Shown here: one piece after another, positions 7,979 to 32,000 of the stretch
Position numbering within the stretch: the first letter of the stretch is position 1
How the letters are laid out: each line of letters opens with the position of its first letter
Assembly: GCF_016127575.1 (NCBI RefSeq)
Contig: NZ_CP066018.1
Span: forward strand, 3,420,001-3,452,000
Length of the DNA stretch: 32,000 bases
DNA from: Cupriavidus necator
Lineage (GTDB): Bacteria; Pseudomonadota; Gammaproteobacteria; Burkholderiales; Burkholderiaceae
Direction: 5' to 3'
Position numbers and translations under genes: made by a program
Notes under the pieces: model-generated
Told to the model about the DNA's origin: nothing
What the model saw: the letters and a program-made list of their open reading frames with translations, nothing else
The model's database searches: none

Positions 7979-8257
7979 TCAGCGGATCGATGAAGGATGC
8001 GGCGCCAGCGGCGTGACGGCGATCTTCATGTACGGGAACAGCGGCAGCCCCGACAGCAGCGTGTGCAGCGTCTCGTTGGACTCGACGTCGAACACGCTGT
8101 AGTTGGCATACTCGCCCACCACGCGATAGAGCTGCTGCCACTTGCCCTGGCGCTGCAGGTCCTGCGCATAGGCTTTCTCGCGCGCCTTGATGTCCTCCGC
8201 CTGCGCGGCGGGCATGTCGTGCGGCAGGCTTACGTCCATTCGTACCAGATACAGCAT
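7979..8257 (-). CDS. catC: Muconolactone delta-isomerase
   Basis: 92 aa, MLYLVRMDV...GKWQQLYRVVGEYANYSVFDVESNETLHTLLSGLPLFPYM. Size and sequence are characteristic of CatC. Confidence 0.92.
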   Translation of the reverse strand: MLYLVRMDVSLPHDMPAAQAEDIKAREKAYAQDLQRQGKWQQLYRVVGEYANYSVFDVESNETLHTLLSGLPLFPYMKIAVTPLAPHPSSIR

Positions 8258-8302
8258 TGGTGTCTCCTCGCTTCGATTCTGATGGGGTCTGATGGCAGGG
8301 AA

Positions 8303-9448
8303 TCAGGCGCGGTCGCGCCGGTAGTGGGCGAGCTTGTCCTCGTCCAGCGCCATGCCCAGGCCGGGGCCCTGCGGCAGGTGCAACGCGAAGTCGCGGTAGA
8401 CGGGGCGCTCGGCGACGATGTCGTCCTTCAGCAGCAGCGGGCCGAACAGTTCGGTGCCCCACGCCAGTTGCGGCAGGGTCGCAAAGCCGTGGGCGGCGGC
8501 AATGGTGCCGATGCTGCCTTCGAGCATGGTGCCGCCATACAGCGCGATGCCGGCCGCATCGCCCACCGCGGCCGTGCGCAGCATGCCGAAGATGCCGCCC
8601 GACTTGGCGATCTTCAGGGCGAACACGTCGGCGCCGCCGATGCGGGCCAGTTCCATCGCGTCCTCGGGCCCGCACACCGCTTCGTCGGCCATGATGGGCA
8701 CCACGAAACGCGCCGCCAGGCGCGCCAGCGCGGCGCGTTGCTCGCGTGGCGTGGGCTGCTCGATCAGGTCGATGCCGGCGGTCTCCAGCATGGCAATGCC
8801 GGTGGCGGCATCCGCTTCGTTCCAGGCCTGGTTGACGTCCACCGTGACACGGGCGCGCTCGCCCAGCGCGCGCTTGATCGCGGAAACGTGTGCGACGTCC
8901 TCGCGCACGCTGCGCCGGCCGATCTTGAGCTTGAAGGTATCGTGGCGGCGCTCGGCGAGCAGGCGCTCGGCCTCGTCGATGTCCCGCGCGGTGTCGCCGC
9001 TGGCGAGCGTCCACAGCACCGGCAGGGTGTCGCGCACGGCGCCGCCCAGCAGTGTCGCCAGCGGCACGCCGAGACGCTTGCCCTGCGCGTCCAGCAGTGC
9101 GGTCTCGAGCGCCGACTTGGCGAAGCGGTTACCGCGTGCGACCTTGCCGAGGCGCGCCATGGCGCCATGCACATTGGCCGCATCCTGGCCCAGCAGCGCC
9201 GGTGCAAGGTAGCTGTCGATGGTCAGCTTGATGCCCTCGGGGCTCTCGTCGCCGTAGGAAAGTCCACCGATGGTGGTCGCCTCGCCGAGGCCTTCGATGC
9301 CGTCGGCACAGCGCAGGCGGACGATCACCAGCGTCTGCCGCTGCATGGTCGCCATGGCGAGCTGATGCGGCCGGATGGTCGGAAGATCGACCAGGATGGC
9401 CTCGATGGACTCGATGGCCGTGATGCTTTGCTGCGTCGCCACTTTCAT
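8303..9448 (-). CDS. catB: Muconate cycloisomerase (enolase superfamily)
   Basis: 381 aa of the MLE/enolase-superfamily pattern (IVRLRCADGIEGLGEATTIGGLSYG, KLKIG, VDVNQAW, IEQP). It sits upstream of catC. Confidence 0.9.
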   Translation of the reverse strand: MKVATQQSITAIESIEAILVDLPTIRPHQLAMATMQRQTLVIVRLRCADGIEGLGEATTIGGLSYGDESPEGIKLTIDSYLAPALLGQDAANVHGAMARLGKVARGNRFAKSALETALLDAQGKRLGVPLATLLGGAVRDTLPVLWTLASGDTARDIDEAERLLAERRHDTFKLKIGRRSVREDVAHVSAIKRALGERARVTVDVNQAWNEADAATGIAMLETAGIDLIEQPTPREQRAALARLAARFVVPIMADEAVCGPEDAMELARIGGADVFALKIAKSGGIFGMLRTAAVGDAAGIALYGGTMLEGSIGTIAAAHGFATLPQLAWGTELFGPLLLKDDIVAERPVYRDFALHLPQGPGLGMALDEDKLAHYRRDRA

Positions 9449-9526
9449 ACCTTCCTGATGCAGTTGAACGTTGCACCGGAGTATGGAGGGCTATTTTTGG
9501 GGTGTCCAAGACCGTTGGCGTCTGAT

Positions 9527-9547
9527 TTCATACCTACAGAGTATGAA
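9527..9547. promoter_or_regulatory. LysR (CatR/BenM-type) recognition site TTCATAC-N7-GTATGAA in the catB promoter region
   Basis: ttcatacctacagagtatgaa was read directly. It is a perfect 7-bp inverted repeat containing ATAC-N7-GTAT, located 82-99 nt upstream of the catB ATG. Confidence 0.65.
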
Positions 9548-9561
9548 CCGCCCGTTGCGCC

Positions 9562-10479
9562 TTATTCCTTCGGCGGCGGCAGGTAGGCCATGCCCTCATC
9601 CTCGTAGAGCTGGTAGATCATGTCCCGCAGCGAGCGCAGGTCGGCCGACTCGTCCAGCATGCGCGTGCTCATGATAATGGGCGACACCAGCTTGGGATCG
9701 TCCAGTTCCTTGTAGGTCACGTCGCCCCGCTTGAGCCCGTAGACGCTGCTCGGGACCACCGAGATGCCTTCGCCCATCGCCACCAGCCCGAGCGCGATTT
9801 GCAGCTCGCGCACCTCGTGCAGGCGGCGCGGCTTCAGGGCGCGGTCGTGGAAGGCGGCCAGCACCTGGTCGGCAAAGCTCGGGCGCGGCGCCTTGGGGAA
9901 GATGATGAGCGGCTCGCCGACCAGGTCGTGCAGCGCGAGCTCGGGCTTGGCGTCAGCCAGCGGATGGCCGACCGGCAGCGCCACGATCATGCGCTCCTCA
10001 CGCAGCACCACGCGCCGCACCGACGGGTCTTCGTGGCGAATGCGCCCGAAGCCCACATCGATGCGCCCCTCCTTGAGCGCCTTGATCTGGTCCATGGTCG
10101 ACATCTCGTGCAGGCTCAGTTCGAGATCGGCGTGCATCTGCCGGAAGCGCCGGATGATCCGCGGCAGCATCCCATACAACGTGGAGCCGACAAAGCCGAC
10201 CGACATCTTGTGCTCGATCTTGCCGACCCGCTTGGTCATCGCCTGCAGTTCCGCGGTCTGGGCCAGCAGTTGCAGCGCGTGGGTATAGAAGAAGCGCCCG
10301 GTATCGGTCAGTTTCAGCGGGCGCGAGTGGCGCTCGAACAGTTGCACACCCAGGTCGTCCTCCAGTTGCTGGATCTGGCGCGACAGCGGCGGCTGTGCGA
10401 TATGCAGCCGCTCGGCCGCCCGGGTGAAGTTGCGTTCCTCTGCCACCGCCACGAAGTAACGCAGGTGCCGCAATTCCAA
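9562..10479 (-). CDS. LysR-family transcriptional regulator, CatR/BenM type
   Basis: The start is a TTG at 10479 (TTG GAA TTG CGG CAC CTG CGT = MELRHLRYF) with GGAGG 7 nt upstream. HTH region FTRAAERLHIAQPPLSRQIQQLE. 305 aa, divergent from catA-benABCD. Confidence 0.88.
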   Translation of the reverse strand: MELRHLRYFVAVAEERNFTRAAERLHIAQPPLSRQIQQLEDDLGVQLFERHSRPLKLTDTGRFFYTHALQLLAQTAELQAMTKRVGKIEHKMSVGFVGSTLYGMLPRIIRRFRQMHADLELSLHEMSTMDQIKALKEGRIDVGFGRIRHEDPSVRRVVLREERMIVALPVGHPLADAKPELALHDLVGEPLIIFPKAPRPSFADQVLAAFHDRALKPRRLHEVRELQIALGLVAMGEGISVVPSSVYGLKRGDVTYKELDDPKLVSPIIMSTRMLDESADLRSLRDMIYQLYEDEGMAYLPPPKE

Positions 10480-19645: not shown

Positions 19646-20741
19646 ACTGCAGTCCGTCGGGCTGCGCCTGGAAGACCCGAATGCCGGCGCGGCCAGCCGG
19701 CGCGGCGGGGCGGGTCCGTCCGATCACAAGGCGGTCACCATCGACGGCGTGACCATCATGGTGCCGGTGCATACCAGTACCGCGTGGCACTCGCCGTTCG
19801 TGGCGCATTCGCCCGACGGAACGGGGCGCAGCGCGCTGATGCGCGGCACCATCCCGATTGCCAGCATCAGCTTTCCGAAGGCGCCGCGTTTCCATGCGCT
19901 GCAGACCCTGGAGGGCATCCCGTACTCGCATATCGCCACGCTGCATGGCGCCGATGTGCTGGCCACCACGGTGCTGCAGACTTGCATCCGCTACGAGAGC
20001 CGCAAAAAGACCTGCAAGTTCTGCTCGATCGGCCAGTCGCTGGCGGCGGGCCGCACGATCGCGCGCAAGACGCCGGAGCAACTGGCCGAAGTGGCGCGCG
20101 CCGCAGTGCTGCTCGACGGCGTCAGGCATATGGTGCTGACCACCGGCACGCCGCCGACGCCGGACCGGGGCGCGGCTATTCTTTGCGAGAGCGCCTTCGC
20201 CATCAAGGCCGCGGTCGACCTGCCGATCCAGGCGCAGTGCGAGCCGCCCGACGACGACCGCTGGTTTGAGCGCATGAAGGCCGCCGGCATCGACACGCTC
20301 GGCATGCACCTCGAGGTCGTCACGCCGGCGCTGCGCGAGCGCATCATGCCGGGCAAGGCGGGGGTGCCTCCGAGCCGCTACATGGAAGCCTTCAAGGCCG
20401 CCGTTGCGGTGTTCGGCAGGGCGCAGGTCAGCACGTACATCCTCGCGGGACTCGGCGACACCGCGGAAGCCATCCTGTCGATCTCGCGCGAGCTGATCGA
20501 GCTCGGGGTGTATCCGTTCGTGGTGCCTTTCGTGCCGATCTCCGGCACGCCGCTGGAGGACCACCCGGCACCCTCGCCGGCCTTCATGCAGTCGATCCTG
20601 CAGCCGCTCGGCGCCATGCTGAGCGCCGCCGGCATGCGCTCGTCCGACATCAAGGCAGGTTGCGGCAAGTGCGGCGCGTGCTCGTCACTGGCCACCTACG
20701 AGCGCGAGGCGGCACTGGCGACCGACGGAGCGACATCATGA
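19596..20741 (+). CDS. Radical SAM-type protein (MSMEG_0568-like; NitD)
   Basis: Cys cluster C-x9-C-x2-C ([18 protein letters not shown]) plus C-terminal CGKCGAC. The ATG at 19596 has GGGAG upstream and overlaps the nitrilase by 50 nt. An alternative ATG at 19638 overlaps the nitrilase stop by 8 nt. Confidence 0.75.
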
Positions 20742-21292
20742 AAAGCGATCTCTGCGTCGAGGTGCCGGGCATCCCGATGTTCCGCATCCGCTGGGCGGAG
20801 CACACCTGGGAGGCGGAGCAGGCCTATCGCCTGCGCCAGGCCGTGTTCTGCGAGGAGCAGGGCATCTTTGCGGGCGACGACCGGGACGCGGTGGACGACG
20901 TGGCGCAACTGCTGGTGGCGGTGCGCTTCGAGCCGGAATTGCCCCGCCATCCCGGCACCGTGGTCGGCACGGTTCGCATCCATGAAAGCGAGCCGGGCGT
21001 GTGGTTCGGCTCGCGGCTTGCGGTGGATGCGGCATACCGAAGCCAGGGCAAGATCGGTGCGACGCTGATCCGCCTGGCGGTGAGCAGCGCCCACGCGATC
21101 GGCTGCCGGCGCTTCCTTGCGCACGTGCAGAGCCAGAACGTGCCCTTGTTCAGGCGCTTGCATTGGCACGTCCTGGCAGAGGAGACGCTGCTCGGGCGGC
21201 CTCACCACCTGATGCAGGCAGACCTGAACCATTACCCACCTTGTCATACGCCGCACGCGGGCCTGATTGCGGAAGGCAGGGCCGTGCGATGA
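20738..21292 (+). CDS. GNAT-family N-acetyltransferase (MSMEG_0567/Sll0786-like; NitE)
   Basis: ATGA overlap with the upstream stop. Contains the acetyl-CoA-binding-like segment RLAVDAAYRSQGKIGATL. 184 aa. Confidence 0.75.
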   Translation: MKSDLCVEVPGIPMFRIRWAEHTWEAEQAYRLRQAVFCEEQGIFAGDDRDAVDDVAQLLVAVRFEPELPRHPGTVVGTVRIHESEPGVWFGSRLAVDAAYRSQGKIGATLIRLAVSSAHAIGCRRFLAHVQSQNVPLFRRLHWHVLAEETLLGRPHHLMQADLNHYPPCHTPHAGLIAEGRAVR

Positions 21293-22284
21293 GCCTCGAC
21301 GACCTCGTACACACCTTGCGCAGCAGCCGGGGTTTTGCGCATAAGACCGATATCCCGGCCATGCTGTCGCCACTCGGCGCCGCGGCCACCGGACGCAACG
21401 CGGCCATGGCTGTCGATGTCGGCGACGACTGCGCGGCATGGCGGGATGGCGACGGCTACCTGCTGTTCGCCATTGAAGGACTGGTCAGTGATTTCATCCG
21501 CACGATGCCGTGGTTCGCCGGCTACAGCGCGGTCATGGTCAACATCAGCGATATCTATGCGATGGGCGGCAGGCCGACGGCCGTGGTCGATGCGCTATGG
21601 AGCCATGGCGCCGCCGACGCCGCTGAAGTGCTCAAGGGCATGGCAGCGGCGTCTGCCGCTTATGGCGTGCCGATCGTCGGCGGTCACAGCAACGCGCGCA
21701 GCGAGGAAAGCCAGCTTGCCGTGGCGATCGTTGGCCGGGCGCGCAAGCTGCTGTCGAGTTTCGCGGCGCGTCCCGGGCAGCGCCTGTTGATGGCGGTGGA
21801 CCTGCGCGGCGCGTTCGCGGAGCCGTACCCGTTCTGGAACGCATCGACGGGCGCGCCGGGCGAACGACTGCGCGCGGATCTCGAACTCTTGCCGGTGCTG
21901 GCCGAAGACGGCCTTTGCACCGCGGCCAAGGACATCAGCATGGCGGGTGCGCTCGGCACCGCGCTGATGCTGCTCGAATGCTCCGGGGTGGGCGCCAGCA
22001 TCGCGCTGGAGCGCATTCCGCGGCCCGATGGCGTGCCGCTGGAGCGATGGCTGACCGCATTCCCCAGCTATGGCTTCCTGCTGGCCGTCAATGACGACGA
22101 TGCGCAGGCGGTCGAACGCCGCTTCCTCGATCGCGGCATTGCCTGCGCCCAGATCGGCGCCATCGACGATTCCCGTGTCGCCACGCTCACGCACGCCGGC
22201 GAACGGGCCACGTTGTGGGACTTCCGCGAGGCAGGGTTCATCCTGCCGACGCGCCTGGCCACGCCGATCGATTCCCCAACCTGA
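21289..22284 (+). CDS. AIR-synthase-like (PurM/ThiL/HypE superfamily) ATP-dependent enzyme (Sll0787-like; NitF)
   Basis: ATGA overlap with the GNAT stop. N-terminal AVDVGDDCAA and NISDIYAMGG motifs are typical of the PurM-like superfamily. 331 aa. Confidence 0.78.
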   Translation: MSLDDLVHTLRSSRGFAHKTDIPAMLSPLGAAATGRNAAMAVDVGDDCAAWRDGDGYLLFAIEGLVSDFIRTMPWFAGYSAVMVNISDIYAMGGRPTAVVDALWSHGAADAAEVLKGMAAASAAYGVPIVGGHSNARSEESQLAVAIVGRARKLLSSFAARPGQRLLMAVDLRGAFAEPYPFWNASTGAPGERLRADLELLPVLAEDGLCTAAKDISMAGALGTALMLLECSGVGASIALERIPRPDGVPLERWLTAFPSYGFLLAVNDDDAQAVERRFLDRGIACAQIGAIDDSRVATLTHAGERATLWDFREAGFILPTRLATPIDSPT

Positions 22285-22292
22285 GACCTGCC

Positions 22293-22580
22293 ATGCCAGT
22301 TACCTATTTCCGCATCCGCTGGCCTGACCAGACCGAGATGGCCTGCTATTCCCCATCCTCCATCGTCACGGAGCACTTTGCCGAAGGGGCGGCGTATCCG
22401 CTGGACGAGTTCGTCGAGCGCGCGCGTACCGCGCTGGGCGCCGCTTCCGAGCGGGTGCGTGCCAGGTATGGCTACGCCTGCTCGTCCGCGATGGACCAGC
22501 TCCGCATCCTGGAAATCGCCGCGCAGCGGTTCCGGGGCCAGGACGGCGCCACCGTCCGGTTTCTCGGCTTTGGCAGCTAG
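22293..22580 (+). CDS. Small conserved protein of Nit1C-type clusters (MSMEG_0570-like; NitG)
   Basis: MPVTYFRIRWPDQTEMACYSPSSIV..., 95 aa, 8 nt after the upstream stop. The assignment rests on position and remembered family resemblance. Confidence 0.6.
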   Translation: MPVTYFRIRWPDQTEMACYSPSSIVTEHFAEGAAYPLDEFVERARTALGAASERVRARYGYACSSAMDQLRILEIAAQRFRGQDGATVRFLGFGS

Positions 22581-22615
22581 CCGTTCTTCAAATTCCTCGC
22601 CTTAAAGGATCCAAC

Positions 22616-23902
22616 ATGTCCAACGTCATCTACACCAATCCGGACCAGGCCGCAGAACCCAGGCACTACGGCGTCATCATTGTCGGCGGCGGCCAGGCCG
22701 GACTATCGATGAGCTACTTCCTGAAGCAGGCCGGCATCGATCATCTCATCATCGAGAAGCACACCGTCACGCATACCTGGCGCACGCAACGCTGGGATGC
22801 GTTCTGCCTGGTGACGCCGAACTGGCAATGCGCGCTGCCGGGCTATCCCTACCAGGGTGATGATCCGCACGGCTTCATGAAGAAGGATGAGATCACGGCC
22901 TATCTCGATGGCTTTATCCGGACGGTCGGCGCACCGGTGCTCGAGCACACCGAGGTACGGCAAGTGAAGGCGCGCGCTCAGGGGGGATTTGCCGTGGTGA
23001 CGAGCCAGGGTGCATTCACCGCAGACCAGGTGGTGGTGGCCTCGGGCGGTTATCACACGCCGATCGTGCCGCGCATGGCCGAGCGCCTGCCGGCGTCGGT
23101 CCGGCAGCTGCAATCGTCCGAATACAGGAATCCCGAGTCGCTGCCCGAGGGTGCGGTGCTCGTGGTTGGCTCGGGCCAGTCGGGCGCGCAGATTGCGGAA
23201 GACCTGCACCTGGCCGGCCGCAAGGTGTACCTGGCCGTCGGCGAGGCGCCGCGCTGCGCGCGCTTCTATCGCGGGCGGGACGTCGTGGACTGGCTCGCGG
23301 ACATGAAATACTACGACCTGCCGGTCACCGAGCATCCGCTGCGCGAGGGCGTTCGCGACAACACCAATCACTATGTCACCGGCCGCGACGGCGGGCGCGA
23401 TATCGACCTGCGCAGGTTTGCCACTGAGGGCATGGAGCTCTACGGCTTGCTCGACGACTACCTCGAAGGCCAACTGCGTTTTGCGCCGGACCTGCGTCGC
23501 AACCTGGACGATGCCGATGCGACTTACAACCGCATCAACGCGAGCATCGACAAGTTCATCGCGGAGCGAGGTATCGAGGCGTCGCCGCCGAGCGTCTATG
23601 AGCCCGTGTGGACGCCGCCGGCCGAGCGCACCGAACTTGATCCTCAGGCAGCCGGCATTGGTTCGATCATCTGGTGCATCGGCTTCCGGCCGGACTTCAG
23701 CTGGCTCGAAGTGCCGGTGTTCAACGGCCGCGGCTATCCGGGCCACGAACGTGGCGTGACCGCGCACGCCGGCCTGTACTTCCTTGGCCTGCCCTGGCTG
23801 CACACGTGGGGATCGGGGCGATTCTCCGGCATCGCGCGCGACGCCGAGTACCTGGCCGCCCTGATCGCCGCAGGCCGGGGCGACACCGCGCTGGCCGCCT
23901 GA
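22616..23902 (+). CDS. FAD/NAD(P)-dependent oxidoreductase, flavin-monooxygenase-like (MSMEG_0569-like; NitH)
   Basis: Two dinucleotide-binding motifs, VIIVGGGQAGLS and VLVVGSGQSGAQIA. 428 aa. Confidence 0.85.
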   Translation: MSNVIYTNPDQAAEPRHYGVIIVGGGQAGLSMSYFLKQAGIDHLIIEKHTVTHTWRTQRWDAFCLVTPNWQCALPGYPYQGDDPHGFMKKDEITAYLDGFIRTVGAPVLEHTEVRQVKARAQGGFAVVTSQGAFTADQVVVASGGYHTPIVPRMAERLPASVRQLQSSEYRNPESLPEGAVLVVGSGQSGAQIAEDLHLAGRKVYLAVGEAPRCARFYRGRDVVDWLADMKYYDLPVTEHPLREGVRDNTNHYVTGRDGGRDIDLRRFATEGMELYGLLDDYLEGQLRFAPDLRRNLDDADATYNRINASIDKFIAERGIEASPPSVYEPVWTPPAERTELDPQAAGIGSIIWCIGFRPDFSWLEVPVFNGRGYPGHERGVTAHAGLYFLGLPWLHTWGSGRFSGIARDAEYLAALIAAGRGDTALAA

Positions 23903-23903
23903 C

Positions 23904-24736
23904 ATGGAAGCCGTCGTCTCGCGCCATGTGGCCGGCATGCCCCAGTTGGCATACACCGGCCTGTCAGAGAACTGGCTGCTGAAGACCTGCGGCGACCTGC
24001 ACTGGCGCCTGCTGGCCGCCGGCGCCGGCCTGGGGGTGCCGGACTTCCGCGATGCCGAGGGCAATCCGGTGTATGCGGCGTTCACCGCGATCCGCGTGCG
24101 CGACGCCGCGCCGCAAACGGTCGGCGAGCACGCCGGGTTCAGCATCGGTTCGCACATCGTGCCAGCGGGTGGCGTGAAGCACCTCAGCGAACATGCGGTC
24201 GACATGCATGGGGACTGCCGCGCCAGCGTGACGATGCTGTCCACCTTCATCCGCCGCACGCGTGACCGGGACAACCGCTCGGTCGTGCGCACCATGCCGA
24301 CCGTGGCCGCGCAGTGGGCCGGCGCCGGCCCGTCGGCACAGGCGGCGGAACTGTCGCTGCTGGCACGGCGTTTTCGCGGCGGGGATTGGGGCATGCATCT
24401 CGGGCTCGATCAGGCCCGGCATCGCGTCTGCCACGCCGCCGAGTACCTGCCGTGCCCCTGCAACGACTTCAATGGCGCCGACCTGCTGTACTTCGCCAGC
24501 TTCCAGGCCATGGTCGATCGCGCGGAATGGCAATGGCGCCGCGACGCGGATCCGCCCACGGTGTTCGCGCGGGACCTGTTCTTCCATGGCAACGTCAATG
24601 TCGGCGAGTCGCTGGAGCTGATCTTCTCCGCGCTGCGCGAGGACGAGGAAGGATTGACGCACTGGTGTGAGATCCGGCGCAGCCGCGACGGCGAGAAGAT
24701 CGCAGATGTGGTCACGCAGAAGCGGTGGAGGCAACG

Positions 24737-24740
<4 letters not shown>
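23904..24740 (+). CDS. Double hot-dog-fold protein, LnmK / Pnap_2097-like (tentative)
   Basis: Starts 1 nt after the flavoprotein stop. Two hotdog-like halves each open with a helix-type motif (GLSENWLLKTCGDLHWRLL and DFNGADLLYFASFQAMVDRAEWQW). The family name is from memory. Confidence 0.5.
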
Positions 24741-26815
<2,075 letters not shown>

Positions 26816-27007: not shown

Positions 27008-28063
27008 CTACCGCGTGGCGAACGCCAGCCGCGGTGGCGCTTCTGGCACCGCGCAGCGAACGCGCCGGTCGCGCTCCGGCAGTGTCAGCTGGGTACGTGG
27101 CGGCGCGGCTCGCCGCACGCCGAGGATTTCGGCTACATTGGCTTGCGGGCGGAGCAGCGGCCGCAGCAGCGAGGCGGGGCCTGTGAGCAGCGGCGTCACG
27201 CCCGGGCCGTGCCCGCTGACCGTGCTGTCGCCGTGTACCACGACGCCGATGGTCACGCGGTCATTGGCGTAGCGCGGCCCCCGCCGCGTATCGGCGCCGA
27301 TGATCGCCACCATGTCGCCGAAGCGCAGGCTGCCCAGACGGTAGCGCTCACGTGCCTGCCGGTCCGACAGCTGGATATCGTAATCCCCGCGCCATGCATT
27401 GTTCTTTCCCAGTCCGGAGCCCATGACGCGCGCCGGCACCAGATGCGTGACCGGCGCATGGAGCTGGCCATCGCGCTCCAGCAGGCCCCATCGCGCCAGC
27501 AGGCGCGGCGAGCAGTTGAGGACTTCGATTCGGGGGTAGTCGCGGAGTCGTAAGCCCAGTCCATGCGAAAGAACCTGGATGCGGTCGCCGATGCAAAGGC
27601 GCACCAGCACCTCCGTGGGAAAGTCCACCAGCACGTGGTTGACGCCGCCGTGCTTGCCCGTCACCACACCAGTCCGGCCCGCGCACGCTCCGTTGACCAC
27701 ACGGGCCGGATTGCCGACGCAGGCATAGGTCAGCAGGGCGCTGTTGGGTCCGTCGCGTGGGCCGACGATCTCGCGCCCGTTGTTGTGCAGGGCGACCCCC
27801 GGCTCGATATGGTCGCCCGCCAACCCGACGCAAGGATCGCCGATGCGCCTATTGACCACGATGCCGCCGGTACCCGGCAGGACGCGCGGCACGCCGTCGT
27901 AGCCAATGCGGTAGGGCGAGGCGCGCCCCACGGGATGCGCGATCTGCCCAAGGACGGACACCGCCACGAGTTCGTCGGCATTGATTCGGGGAACGGGGCG
28001 TGCACCGTCGCGGCCGGCCGGACGGGACAGGGCTTGCTGGACGAGCGGAATCGGGCGGGACAT
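27008..28063 (-). CDS. DUF4438-like protein (function unknown)
   Basis: The SPYRIGYDGVPRVLPGTGGIVVNRRIGDPCVGLAGDHIEPGV segment resembles what I remember of DUF4438 (the TM1086 family). The ATG at 28063 has GGAG 9 nt upstream. An alternative ATG at 28072 directly abuts the GGAG. Confidence 0.55.
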   Translation of the reverse strand: MSRPIPLVQQALSRPAGRDGARPVPRINADELVAVSVLGQIAHPVGRASPYRIGYDGVPRVLPGTGGIVVNRRIGDPCVGLAGDHIEPGVALHNNGREIVGPRDGPNSALLTYACVGNPARVVNGACAGRTGVVTGKHGGVNHVLVDFPTEVLVRLCIGDRIQVLSHGLGLRLRDYPRIEVLNCSPRLLARWGLLERDGQLHAPVTHLVPARVMGSGLGKNNAWRGDYDIQLSDRQARERYRLGSLRFGDMVAIIGADTRRGPRYANDRVTIGVVVHGDSTVSGHGPGVTPLLTGPASLLRPLLRPQANVAEILGVRRAAPPRTQLTLPERDRRVRCAVPEAPPRLAFATR

Positions 28064-28075
28064 GGGTGCCATCTC

Positions 28076-28750
28076 CTATCGCATCCTGCGCACCACGGTG
28101 GCGGCGATCTGCGGCTGTCCCGGCGCGCGCCGGTTCTCGGCCGCGACGGCGTCGTAGATGGTGTGCGCGATATGGTGCAGCTCCGCATCGGTCACGCGTC
28201 CGCTGACCTGATAGAACAGGCGCACGCGCTGCGGCAGCCCGGGCACGGCGCTGGTCCGGGACTGGCGCATATGGCGCCGCACCTGGTCCATGTCGCGCAC
28301 CACCTGTCGCGCAAGATGGCTCAGGCGTAGCCGTCCGTTGGCGTCGCGGTAATCGGTTGCGTGTAGCAGCTTGCTTTCGAGGCCTGCCGGCAGGCGCTTG
28401 GGGGCAGCCGGCATCGGCGTGAGATCGAGCACCGAGCCGCCCCTGCGCGGGCCGATGCGGAGCTGGTTGCGCACATCGAAGCCGCGCAGGCACAGGCGTT
28501 CGACCAGGATCTGCTCGGCGCAACGGCCACGCAGGTTATTGATGACGATGAGCGCCGGACGCTGCCCGCGCGGCCGGGCCTCGGCGGCGGCCAGATCACG
28601 GCATGCCAGATGCCGGGCGCGCGAGGCCGGCAGGCATTCGTTGCGGCCGACGGCAGGGTCGGCATCCCCGGCGCGTCCGCGCTCGCGCGTCCAGTGCCGA
28701 ACGGCATCGTCAAGCATGGCGTCGACGAACTGGTCGATTGCTGCGCTCAT
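28076..28750 (-). CDS. Hypothetical protein (224 aa)
   Basis: MSAAIDQFVDAMLDDAVRHW... The ATG at 28750 forms an ATGA overlap with the upstream gene's stop. The track ORF extension to 29068 was rejected. No family was recognised. Confidence 0.55.
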   Translation of the reverse strand: MSAAIDQFVDAMLDDAVRHWTRERGRAGDADPAVGRNECLPASRARHLACRDLAAAEARPRGQRPALIVINNLRGRCAEQILVERLCLRGFDVRNQLRIGPRRGGSVLDLTPMPAAPKRLPAGLESKLLHATDYRDANGRLRLSHLARQVVRDMDQVRRHMRQSRTSAVPGLPQRVRLFYQVSGRVTDAELHHIAHTIYDAVAAENRRAPGQPQIAATVVRRMR

Positions 28751-29613
28751 GCTTCGGCTCCTTGCGGGGCCGGTGTGCCGATCGCCGGAGTGGGGCAAAG
28801 GGGATACCACCAGGCGGTGGCTTGCTGCCAGGGGTCGGCATGATGGCCGGTCCCGACCAGCGGGCCATCGACGCAAGCATGGTGCGGCGACGACGCCATT
28901 ACATGCAGCGCGGCCAGCCTGGGCAGGCGTTCGGCGAGCCCGGCCACTCCTGCCGCTGCCAGTGCGTCGCGCAGCAGCGAGCGCTCGGCGCCGAACAGGG
29001 ATTCGGAAGGCAGCGGGTCCAGATGCCGCACGTCGACGCCGCTTCGCCACAGGGCATGCACCGGCCACGGTGCGCCGTCACCATCAAGCGTGGTCAGCAC
29101 GATGGCGGCATCGAGCGTGGCGGAGAGTGCGAGCGTGTCGAGGGCGATGGCGAGCGGATCCCACCAGGGGGAGGGCATTGGGCCGAGCGCCGGCCTTGCC
29201 CCCTCGCAGCGGCGCAGCAGGGCGTCGAGCAGGACCTCGTAGCGCTCGACCACGGCATGGTCGGCAGCGTCGCCGAGCTGGGAACCGGCCACGTTGTCTC
29301 CGACCCAGCGAAACGGCCACGACGCGGCATCGGTGCAGTCGCGCATCGCGATCCACGCAATCAGAGCGGGTTCGAGCGGCCTCGGCACGGCGCCGCCGCT
29401 GTCCAGTGCCGCGCCGTTGGCCGAGAGGCCTGGCAGTACCATCTCGCTCGCATCGATGACCTGCCAGAACGCGCGCGTGAGCCAGGGCTCCAGCACCCGC
29501 GTGAGCCGCAACGCCAGGCTCGGCCCCCAGGGCGACCCGAGCACCAGCGCGGGATCGAGGATGCAGGCGAGCTTGCGTTGCCGTACCGATACGATCATGT
29601 CCTCAGCATGCAT
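28747..29613 (-). CDS. Hypothetical protein (288 aa)
   Basis: MHAEDMIVSVRQRKLACILDPALVLG... GGAGA lies 9 nt upstream of the ATG at 29613. No family was recognised. Confidence 0.55.
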   Translation of the reverse strand: MHAEDMIVSVRQRKLACILDPALVLGSPWGPSLALRLTRVLEPWLTRAFWQVIDASEMVLPGLSANGAALDSGGAVPRPLEPALIAWIAMRDCTDAASWPFRWVGDNVAGSQLGDAADHAVVERYEVLLDALLRRCEGARPALGPMPSPWWDPLAIALDTLALSATLDAAIVLTTLDGDGAPWPVHALWRSGVDVRHLDPLPSESLFGAERSLLRDALAAAGVAGLAERLPRLAALHVMASSPHHACVDGPLVGTGHHADPWQQATAWWYPLCPTPAIGTPAPQGAEA

Positions 29614-29672
29614 GGCGGGGCGTCTCCGTGTCAGCCGCGGTCAGGGATGCGCAAATGTACGGCGCGCCACGG

Positions 29673-30758
29673 TCAGGCCGCAGCCTGCGGCACGCCGAGC
29701 ACGCTGTTCAGCGCGTGTGTCACGCCGGGGAATCCTCGGCCCTCGGGCGTCATCCGGTACGCGGCGACCCACGCTTCCGCGTGCGCGCCCATGGGCCGCA
29801 CCACGCTCTGGAACAGGATCGGATCGGTTGCGGTCTTGAAATCATTGTCCGCAACAAACTGCAGGATCCGCCGGCCGCTTTCGGCCATCTTGGCCCGTTG
29901 CGAGGGCTCGGCCACCCCGCCGAGATAGCGATTCGAGACGATCTCGACCACATCCCACTTGGTGTTGGCGTCAAAGGCCTTCTTGATGTCGGGCGAATCC
30001 AGCAGCTTGAGCACCTGGATCAGGTAATGCCCGGTTTCCATCGCGAGCGCGAAGATATTGCCGTAGGTAGACCGGTCCAGCGCATAGCGCAGGTCGAGCC
30101 CGATGCGCTGGATGGTGCCGACGCTGCCGAAGGGACGCTGGTCGATCAGCTGTCCGCCCCGGATGACTTCGCCGATCAGCAGATCGCGGAAGTACTGGCC
30201 CATCGCCACCATGAAGCCGACCATCTGGCGATGGAAATTGCGGTTGACCACTGCGCCGGCCGGGGCCTGCGCGGTGCCATAGTTGAAGGCGCGCCGATAG
30301 GCCACCATGCGGTCCTGCCGGGTGTAGCGCAGTGGCCGCCATTTTTCGAGCAGATAGAGTCCGCGCGCGCCGGGGCCGCGCTGGATGCGCATCTTCCCCA
30401 GGCGGAACAAGCGCAGCAGGGTCTCGACCACCTCAAAGATCTTCATGCGCTCGTGCTGATAGATAAAGTACAGCTCGGCAGCCGCATGCAACTGGCTCGG
30501 GATGATTGAATCGTCGAAGTCAGGCTGTACATAGGGATAGCCGATCTTCTCGAAGCCGACTGCCCCCTGAGGACCGAGGCCGAGCAGATCGAAGAAGCCT
30601 TCCTCCCCGCTGCCATTGGGTTTGGACAACAGTTCAGAGTAACGCTGCTCGAACTGCGAGGCGAAGGCGTCGCGCTGGTCGGGCGGCAGGCTGGCCAGCT
30701 GCTCCTGCAGAAAGGTCTCCCACAGGCGCTGAATGGTTTCGGTGGTCTGGAAGTTCAT
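29673..30758 (-). CDS. Hypothetical protein (361 aa)
   Basis: MNFQTTETIQRLWETFLQEQL... Its composition is balanced and globular (K, F, Y, I, N present), unlike the antisense frames. GGAG lies 6 nt upstream of the ATG, 21 nt after the upstream stop. No family was recognised. Confidence 0.7.
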   Translation of the reverse strand: MNFQTTETIQRLWETFLQEQLASLPPDQRDAFASQFEQRYSELLSKPNGSGEEGFFDLLGLGPQGAVGFEKIGYPYVQPDFDDSIIPSQLHAAAELYFIYQHERMKIFEVVETLLRLFRLGKMRIQRGPGARGLYLLEKWRPLRYTRQDRMVAYRRAFNYGTAQAPAGAVVNRNFHRQMVGFMVAMGQYFRDLLIGEVIRGGQLIDQRPFGSVGTIQRIGLDLRYALDRSTYGNIFALAMETGHYLIQVLKLLDSPDIKKAFDANTKWDVVEIVSNRYLGGVAEPSQRAKMAESGRRILQFVADNDFKTATDPILFQSVVRPMGAHAEAWVAAYRMTPEGRGFPGVTHALNSVLGVPQAAA

Positions 30759-30779
30759 GATGCGCTCCGTCGTCGGGGG

Positions 30780-32000
30780 TCAGGCCTTGGCAGGGCCGCC
30801 GTCGGGACCCGCAGGGCCCGCTCCGCTACCGTCGGCGCCAGTACCTTCGGTGCCGTCGAAGGCATCAGCCGCACCGGGAGTGAGAGGGGCGGGGGCAGCG
30901 GCGGGCGGCACGGCGGACGTGCCCGGCGTAAGGAGTCGCCGGCGATTCCGTTCCCCCAACTCGTGCGCGATACGATCGATCGAGCCGTCCGGATGTGGCG
31001 GAATCTGCGGGGCGTGCTCGCGATAGTCGCGGTTGCGCCGGTGCCACTCGGGCACGCGCTGCTCGATCATCATCAACGCGCCGCGCTGGTATCCCGGCAG
31101 CATTCCGATATTGCCAAAGGTCCCCATATGTGGCGGACTGTGATAGACGGGGGCGAGCGTCGCATCTGCAAGCATATCCGAGGCCGGAATGCAGCCGGAT
31201 GTCATCTGTTCGACGATGGGCCGCAGTGCGCGCTCGGCCTGCAGCTGGAGCACAAGCTCGCCATGCATCAGCCAGGCGAGCGGTGTCGGTCCTGCCGGCC
31301 CCGTCAGATCGAAGTGATCAATGGTGTGCTTGTCCCATACACGCCATTGGGGCGCGGGGATGACCGGATCCTGCGGGGCGGCGAAGCTGACCCCTGCCGG
31401 GATCAGCAGTGCGGCCATTTCCGACAGCATTGCGCCCGTCGGGTTGTCGGGATTGGTGATGTCCTTCATCGGTGCAGCGGCATCGAGCCAGACATCGGGG
31501 TAACGCAGCGCCAGCGCAAAGATGGCGTGGGCGGCGGCACGCTGTTCCGGCATGCCAAACTCTTCGGTGCCGTTGGCGTAGAGATCGATTGCGCGGTCGA
31601 GATCGTGCAGGACACGGTCAAGCAGGACCTGCAGCTTGAGCGTATCGGGGTCGCAGTCGCAACGGGTGACACAGTCGATGGTCGAAGCAAATCTGCCGCG
31701 CAGACTGACCAGATTCATCAGACGCTGCTCGGCAAAGGTGGTGCCGCTCCCTCCGTAAAGGCCATACATCAGTACGCTGGGACGCGCAATGCGCAGGAGG
31801 CGCAGGCCGCCGGAAGCCTGGAAGCCGTCCACGAACAACTGCAAGGCGTCCTGAAACGCCAGCAGCGGTGGCGCGTCGCGGACCGGCAGGTGCAGCGTCA
31901 CCTGCACGAAGCGCGAGAACCGCCCGAGCATGTTCCATGCGGTCGCGCCGACCCGGCGCAGCCCGTCGCTCGAGCCTCCCGCACACAGCTGGATCATTTC
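30780..32000 (-). CDS. Hypothetical protein with a Pro/Ala/Gly-rich C-terminal tail; the reading frame is open to the right edge, so it may be 5'-truncated
   Basis: A 405-aa ORF in the track (ATG at 31997), but the frame continues through 32000 with no stop. The body has ordinary composition, and roughly the last 50 residues are low complexity. Confidence 0.6.
   Translation of the reverse strand, partial: EMIQLCAGGSSDGLRRVGATAWNMLGRFSRFVQVTLHLPVRDAPPLLAFQDALQLFVDGFQASGGLRLLRIARPSVLMYGLYGGSGTTFAEQRLMNLVSLRGRFASTIDCVTRCDCDPDTLKLQVLLDRVLHDLDRAIDLYANGTEEFGMPEQRAAAHAIFALALRYPDVWLDAAAPMKDITNPDNPTGAMLSEMAALLIPAGVSFAAPQDPVIPAPQWRVWDKHTIDHFDLTGPAGPTPLAWLMHGELVLQLQAERALRPIVEQMTSGCIPASDMLADATLAPVYHSPPHMGTFGNIGMLPGYQRGALMMIEQRVPEWHRRNRDYREHAPQIPPHPDGSIDRIAHELGERNRRRLLTPGTSAVPPAAAPAPLTPGAADAFDGTEGTGADGSGAGPAGPDGGPAKA

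Follow-up and report, generated by a model that had tools for sequence, protein, structure and literature searches.

A conserved operon adjoining a LuxR-family regulator in Cupriavidus necator encodes a putative zinc metallopeptidase and proteins without characterized relatives

Introduction

The DUF4438 family has solved structures, those of TM1086 from Thermotoga maritima (PDB 3dcl and 3n99). Homologs of the TM1086 type found in Thermotogota and Acidobacteriota are solitary, with no such cassette around them (loci L081 and L077), whereas the proteobacterial and cyanobacterial DUF4438 members considered here sit at the 3' end of an operon. Literature searches on DUF4438, TM1086 function and PF14505 in this context yielded nothing relevant, the match retrieved being a different family naming, and a combined-term search on the features of the operon gave no match. 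Gluzincins, such as M48 BepA, the M4 enzymes aureolysin and thermolysin, and M1 peptidases, have an HExxH motif on a helix and an ExxxD motif; both motifs are shared by the operon protein designated P0007, which has a distant match to zincin folds. The protease Lit (Peptidase_U49) also has an HExxH motif and is connected to P0007 by a lead from an Atlas feature search. However, Lit is a single gene, whereas the operon is multigene and apparently LuxR regulated, there was no match between them at the sequence level, and PADLOC gave none.

Results

The stretch of DNA analyzed, here called the window, is 32,000 nucleotides of C. necator contig NZ_CP066018.1 (positions 3,420,001 to 3,452,000). The original prediction had described five closely spaced minus-strand open reading frames at its right end, and the coordinates bear this out. 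The last gene of the operon, P0002 (27008 to 28072, minus strand), encodes a 354-amino-acid DUF4438 protein of the TM1086 family. Upstream on the same strand are P0001 (28076 to 28750; 224 amino acids), an accessory open reading frame with its ATG at 28750; P0003 (29613 down to 28747; 288 amino acids), which is supported by synteny and alignment A8; P0004 (29673 to 30758; 361 amino acids), which is supported by alignment A1 and distant homologs in other clusters; and the C-terminal 405 amino acids of P0006 (30780 to the window end at 32000). The junctions of 21 nt (P0006/P0004), 59 nt (P0004/P0003) and 3 nt (P0001/P0002), and the 4-nt ATGA overlap of the P0001 start with the P0003 stop, are exactly those predicted. 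The fifth gene, described as at least 405 amino acids, does run past the edge, but the full protein has 692 amino acids and starts at contig position 3452858 (L002 4858), 858 nt beyond the window. Matches to P0006 homologs in tblastn begin at query residues 1 to 30 and the homologs span residues 1 to 640; thus, the ATG at 31997 is internal and not the start.

The operon runs off the window, as had been expected, and three further genes lie past the edge: P0007 (contig 3452910 to 3454208; 432 amino acids), P0008 (3454247 to 3455323) and P0009 (3455360 to 3456502). Beyond them is a divergent plus-strand gene for a LuxR-family regulator (3456957 to 3457493). The full order is P0009-P0008-P0007-P0006-P0004-P0003-[P0001]-P0002, so that the predicted five-gene operon is a genuine multigene unit but consists of eight genes, seven core and one accessory, with the window holding its 3' half. 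On its other side the operon converges, as proposed, on a plus-strand gene for a B12-dependent methylmalonyl-CoA mutase (24725 to 26815). The flanks in this genome are metabolic genes, the B12 mutase and a TRAP transporter. An Rfam scan of the 13-kb locus found no RNA family, and a promoter and terminator scan gave output at chance level.

In stranded RNA-seq data the whole operon was strongly transcribed from the minus strand in a condition-dependent manner, with an induction of about 100-fold in run X24 of study P10. The transcript begins at about contig position 3456526, approximately 25 nt upstream of P0009, which places the promoter outside the window as anticipated. The regulator has its own divergent transcription start in the intergenic region that it shares with the operon. 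The operon is read as a single minus-strand polycistronic mRNA from a promoter back to back with that of the regulator and is strongly induced only in some conditions; the neighboring regulator would turn it on. The regulator has a GerE helix-turn-helix domain (Pfam E value, 2e-14) and a short N-terminal region; Pfam gave only GerE and weak helix-turn-helix matches and no autoinducer-binding domain. Two antisense open reading frames (28371 to 29459 and 28603 to 29928) had been raised as possible true genes; both were rejected on the basis of conservation across phyla and the strand polarity of the RNA, which favor the minus strand.

The gene order is kept in about 60 loci from Beta-, Gamma- and Alphaproteobacteria, cyanobacteria and methanotrophs, with P0002 at the 3' end in about 60 loci and the LuxR-family regulator adjoining the cassette in 56. 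Finding one and the same arrangement independently in about 60 loci of several phyla is far beyond chance; a lack of colocalized homologs elsewhere, which would have counted against the operon, was not what was found. The operon is real, conserved and horizontally spread, and it is arranged and transcribed as described above, with a LuxR-family regulator beside it. P0001, an accessory insertion, was seen in just a few loci of Burkholderiaceae (L007 and L008); its sequence cluster is found on 101 contigs, and it had no family match in Pfam or NCBIfam.

P0004 is the core of all cassette variants and has 81% mean identity across phyla, from proteobacteria to cyanobacteria (alignment A1). Its AlphaFold2 model (pLDDT 51, from a shallow alignment of 41 sequences) was of insufficient quality for fold searching, and longer, fused forms of P0004 were sought without success. 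P0007 is 66% conserved across phyla. Conservation falls sharply for P0006, P0003 and P0008/P0009 relative to P0004 and P0007, with P0003 at about 37% mean identity (alignment A8).

Searches of the operon proteins against Pfam, NCBIfam, PHROGs and PADLOC gave a single real match, DUF4438. As had been predicted for the last gene, P0002 has both DUF4438 domains (Pfam E values, 2.3e-54 for the N-terminal and 4e-47 for the C-terminal domain), and its hmmsearch profile matched TM1086 (PDB 3dcl/3n99) with an E value of 7e-105. The in-window orphans P0001, P0003, P0004 and P0006 had no match in any of the four collections. Profiles built from the P0003, P0004 and P0006 alignments had no significant match in the PDB, and Atlas feature searches for P0004 and P0006 gave no usable match. 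Weak matches to SOCS box, type III secretion apparatus, FlgL, PspAA, CsoSCA_N and phage tail or adaptor families (E values of about 0.01 to 0.6) were below the cutoff and were rejected. The seven core proteins all lack a characterized relative.

The prediction that the operon has no enzyme signature holds inside the window, but P0007, beyond its edge, has both an HExxH motif (residues 191 to 195) and an ExxxD motif (residues 234 to 238). In an alignment of 55 sequences (A7), H191, E192, H195 and D238 are invariant and E234 is present in at least 90%. The HExxH motif lies on a helix (residues 187 to 201) of the AlphaFold model (pLDDT 94.8), and the ExxxD motif is a candidate for the third zinc ligand. 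Foldseek searches with the model returned nothing with an E value below 0.001, the structural match to zincin folds being modest and distant, and a profile search of the PDB with the P0007 alignment gave nothing significant. P0007 looks like a cytoplasmic gluzincin-like zinc metallopeptidase, a protease role suggested by the motif and the modest structural match.

The possibility that P0007 serves in antiphage defence, cleaving, once triggered, a target of the host or of the phage, as in protease-based abortive infection of the Lit/Peptidase_U49 type, was considered. The Atlas feature search linked P0007 to a Peptidase_U49 cluster (score of 0.77, a lead only), and proteases occur in variants of the cassette. 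The operon is also patchy within its family, with close P0004 homologs in 3 of 400 Burkholderiaceae genomes, and one copy, carried by a mobilizable plasmid, has a large NB-ARC/WD40 STAND ATPase nearby. However, PADLOC models matched none of the five in-window proteins, the operon proteins were not found in phage genomes (for P0004, no homolog there), the flanks in this genome, being metabolic, do not look like a defence island, and LuxR regulation with strong conditional induction is unusual for defence systems. Thus, a role in defence seems unlikely.

P0008 and P0009 are paralogous disordered proteins of 358 to 380 amino acids. In each, the N-terminal block is acidic and the C-terminal block, of Arg/Ala type, is basic. 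Their C termini have conserved motifs (...CPxC...GPVTITI in P0008 and ...GPVTLTI in P0009). With such strong blocks of opposite charge, the two might act as scaffolds, like CsoS2 of the carboxysome, in which case the operon would form an intracellular protein assembly, a condensate or an organelle-like body, with P0004 and P0007 as assembly components. The unusual conservation of these two proteins across phyla fits extensive protein-protein interfaces, and the subthreshold CsoSCA_N match noted above was in P0007. Yet no bacterial microcompartment shell, CsoS2, encapsulin or gas vesicle domain was detected by Pfam in any operon protein, HExxH/ExxxD is an invariant motif pair of catalytic type, and the much lower conservation of P0006, P0003 and P0008/P0009 does not follow the same pattern. 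An assembly function is accordingly considered improbable.

In distant variants the protease and P0004 are accompanied by extra peptidases (M20, S8, CHAT and amidase) and by actinomycete-type pathway regulators. One is flanked by LAL and SARP regulators and another by a Trp_DMAT-like prenyltransferase gene. Regulators of this secondary-metabolism type, the prenyltransferase and the strong conditional induction of the operon would suit a cluster for a nonpeptide secondary metabolite, in which P0004, P0006, P0003 and the DUF4438 protein were unrecognized tailoring enzymes and P0007 was not a protease. The core proteins have no recognizable enzyme domains beyond the zincin signature, however, and no transporter, carrier-protein or PKS/NRPS domains, and we doubt this explanation.

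Discussion

The original prediction had suggested a structural or assembly, defence or regulatory system. The best, though still tentative, reading is instead that the operon encodes a regulated pathway for protein or peptide processing, with P0007 as its sole recognizable catalytic part; assembly and defence are weaker rivals. P0008 and P0009 would be the likeliest substrates, precursors or scaffolds; P0004, P0006, P0003 and the DUF4438 protein would contribute as additional enzymes of modification or assembly, or as partners; and the end product might be a processed protein or a peptide-derived small molecule. We infer the protease role of P0007, as well as the substrate and the product of the operon.

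Several findings count against regulated processing. The intergenic gaps of 3 to 59 nt leave no room for a small precursor gene, and no conserved, intergenic, RiPP-like precursor open reading frame was found, those that clustered being alternate frames inside conserved genes. YcaO, LanB/LanC/LanM, radical SAM and exporter families were all undetected among the core proteins with Pfam and NCBIfam, and the protease activity of P0007 is predicted from its motif and from structural similarity that is modest. Of the seven core proteins, four lack a known family or fold and could equally be structural.

A more specific version of the processing pathway would yield a new peptide natural product. P0008 and P0009 would serve as precursors, in which a long acidic/basic "leader" is joined to a C-terminal core that is conserved; P0007 would release the core, and P0004, P0006, P0003 and the DUF4438 protein would modify it under LuxR control. 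This version is a long shot.

If the operon is a peptide-processing pathway, it would be of a new kind, with large precursors bearing blocks of opposite charge, and could be widely findable; C. necator, a model organism amenable to genetics, would allow tests of it. Should the operon instead serve assembly or defence, those catalogues would gain a system that is widespread and uncharacterized. Under any reading, the zincin P0007 and P0004, with its high conservation, offer good experimental entry points.

Comparison with RiPP clusters that have a processing protease, such as the cyanobactin (PatA/PatG) and microviridin clusters, points both ways. The operon lacks a short precursor, known RiPP-modifying families and an exporter, and P0008 and P0009 are unusually large for RiPP precursors. 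Like those clusters, however, it combines regulation, a putative protease and candidate substrates, and its variants carry extra peptidases (M20 and S8) and a prenyltransferase-like gene.

Organization of the operon

The window maps to positions 3420001 to 3452000 of contig NZ_CP066018.1 (C1) in a genome of 7.4 Mb (7,415,967 bp; three replicons). The original prediction of closely packed minus-strand open reading frames (ORFs) was reproduced exactly on remeasurement, with P0002 (354 amino acids [aa]; window positions 27008 to 28072) as the last gene, preceded by P0001 (224 aa; 28076 to 28750), P0003 (288 aa; 28747 to 29613), P0004 (361 aa; 29673 to 30758), and a fifth gene, P0006, which runs from 30780 to beyond the window edge. 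The junctions, from P0006 to P0002, are 21, 59, −4 (ATGA), and 3 nt. The fifth gene does extend off the window, as predicted, but the start at 31997 that gave its minimum length of 405 aa is internal, because tblastn matches to ∼50 homologs begin at query residues 1 to 30; on the extended contig the ORF has its ATG at C1 3452858 and encodes 692 aa in all. Downstream, the operon converges, as had been noted, on a gene for methylmalonyl-CoA mutase with a B12-binding domain (24725 to 26815, plus strand).

Extension rightward recovered three further minus-strand genes with gaps of 38 to 51 nt, P0007 (432 aa; C1 3452910 to 3454208), P0008 (358 aa; C1 3454247 to 3455323), and P0009 (380 aa; C1 3455360 to 3456502), and, across a 245-nt intergenic region, a divergent LuxR-family regulator with a GerE helix-turn-helix domain (E value, 2e-14). 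The regulator is annotated as 248 aa (positions 8747 to 9493, plus strand, of the home locus, L002; C1 3456747 to 3457493), a start found in one assembly only. Because most cluster members are 178 aa, the start is probably at C1 3456957, giving the 178-aa form. Upstream of the regulator is a separate, unrelated operon for a TRAP permease (fused DctQ-DctM, 833 aa; L002 9573 to 12074, minus strand; C1 3457573 to 3460074), beyond which lie DctP and a mannitol-dehydrogenase-like protein.

Transcription

In stranded transcriptome sequencing (run X24), the whole cassette was one minus-strand transcription unit, with a depth of 400 to 1250 on the minus strand versus <40 on the opposite strand. This polarity rules out the Arg/Ala-rich antisense ORFs (28371 to 29459 and 28603 to 29928) as the real genes, an alternative that had been raised with the original prediction. 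Two runs from a different study had ∼100-fold lower depth, and expression therefore depends on condition or strain. The whole stretch was present in Logan RNA contigs of eight studies. Many molecule ends bunched at approximately C1 3456526 to 3456529, ∼25 nt before the start codon (ATG) of P0009, and strand polarity switched at approximately C1 3456774 to 3456779, the beginning of the divergent regulator transcript. An inverted repeat with 20-nt arms (home locus L084, 10774 to 10820; C1 3456774 to 3456820) overlaps the LuxR transcription start and may serve as an operator, either in autoregulation or in control of the divergent operon.

X24 (organism B) also had anomalies in the basic C-terminal region of P0008, at L084 8415 and 8442 to 8650 (C1 3454415 and 3454442 to 3454650). 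Within this region were a joint that goes back 209 nt (65+8 reads), a G>C change (67 of 579 reads), and clusters of loose ends (L084 8395 to 8416). A tandem duplication within the Arg/Ala-rich stretch may explain them, as may a strain variant there or a library artifact.

Conservation of the cassette

Synteny across genomes, a check proposed with the original prediction, was evaluated in a scan of genome contigs seeded with P0002, which yielded 79 loci. The order P0009-P0008-P0007-P0006-P0004-P0003-P0002 was unbroken in ∼60 of them, and the operon is therefore a real unit. The cassette occurs in proteobacteria, including Burkholderia, Roseateles, Aromatoleum, Pseudomonas, Lysobacteraceae, Methylococcaceae, Nitrosomonas, and Alphaproteobacteria, and in cyanobacteria (Microcystis and Leptolyngbya). 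Few loci contain P0001, which is an accessory insertion. A LuxR-type gene adjoins the cassette in 56 loci; it is mostly transcribed divergently from P0009, and some loci of Gammaproteobacteria have it after P0002. The degree of conservation varied markedly from gene to gene. Mean identity was 81% for P0004, from proteobacteria to cyanobacteria; in alignments it was 66% for P0007 and 59% for the DUF4438 protein, and identity was 34 to 44% for P0006, P0008/P0009, and P0003. Distant DUF4438 homologs resembling TM1086 in Acidobacteriota (L077) and Thermotogota (L081) lacked the other cassette genes; the DUF4438 family is wider than the operon.

Within Burkholderiaceae the cassette is scattered, with close P0004 homologs in 3 of 400 genomes. 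This patchiness and a plasmid-borne copy favor a defense system, the first of the rival explanations, but PADLOC matches were absent for the five in-window proteins and the surrounding genes in this genome are metabolic.

Distant variants point towards proteolytic processing. On a metagenome contig (L083), the P0007 homolog (8001 to 9941) carries a fused N-terminal Amidase_2 (N-acetylmuramoyl-L-alanine amidase) domain and neighbors a P0004 homolog, an M20 peptidase, and several GerE regulators; the cluster is of actinomycete type and also has the pathway regulators LAL and SARP. A Paraburkholderia plasmid (L089) has, in order, P0008/P0009-like and P0007-like genes, followed after two unknowns by a P0004-like gene and then by genes for an M20 peptidase, an amidohydrolase, and a LuxR regulator. 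Adjoining this variant on the mobilizable plasmid (strain PGU19) is a 1329-aa DUF4062-NB-ARC-WD40 STAND ATPase (20136 to 24125). Other P0007 homologs adjoin a CHAT-domain protease or directly follow a P0008/P0009-like gene, and in one Burkholderiaceae genome a subtilase gene and a gene resembling tryptophan prenyltransferases lie close to P0004 homologs. Since they recur across these variants, the LuxR regulator, the predicted zincin P0007, and P0004 form the core, often with P0008/P0009.

Possible function

P0008 and P0009 are weak paralogs with a charge-block layout: the first ∼110 residues are rich in Asp/Glu (net charge, −40 and −32, respectively), the C-terminal part is rich in Arg/Ala/Pro (pI 12), and the conserved end motif is CPxC…GPVTITIRG in P0008 and GPVTLTI in P0009. 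Our best explanation, offered tentatively, is that the operon is a LuxR-controlled, condition-induced pathway for protein or peptide processing. The regulator would switch the operon on under some conditions, P0007 would process the charge-block proteins, and the remaining proteins would modify or assemble the product, which may be a peptide-derived metabolite. An assembly or condensate on a disordered scaffold ranks second among the rivals. A classical RiPP cluster is disfavored because no short precursor ORF was found in the locus and no known RiPP-modifying enzyme families or transporter were detected among the operon proteins; a biosynthetic cluster with a nonpeptide product is the third rival.

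The observation behind the original prediction is confirmed with corrections, and its interpretation is partly supported. The four in-window orphans, described there as lacking recognizable functions, had zero family matches in Pfam, NCBIfam, PHROGs, and PADLOC, and P0004, P0006, and P0003 had no family, PDB match, or usable model. The DUF4438 assignment of the last gene held, with two such Pfam domains in P0002 (E values, 2.3e-54 and 4e-47). No published function was found in the literature on TM1086; P0002 matches this structural-genomics protein of Thermotoga maritima, the structure of which has been solved (PDB 3dcl and 3n99).
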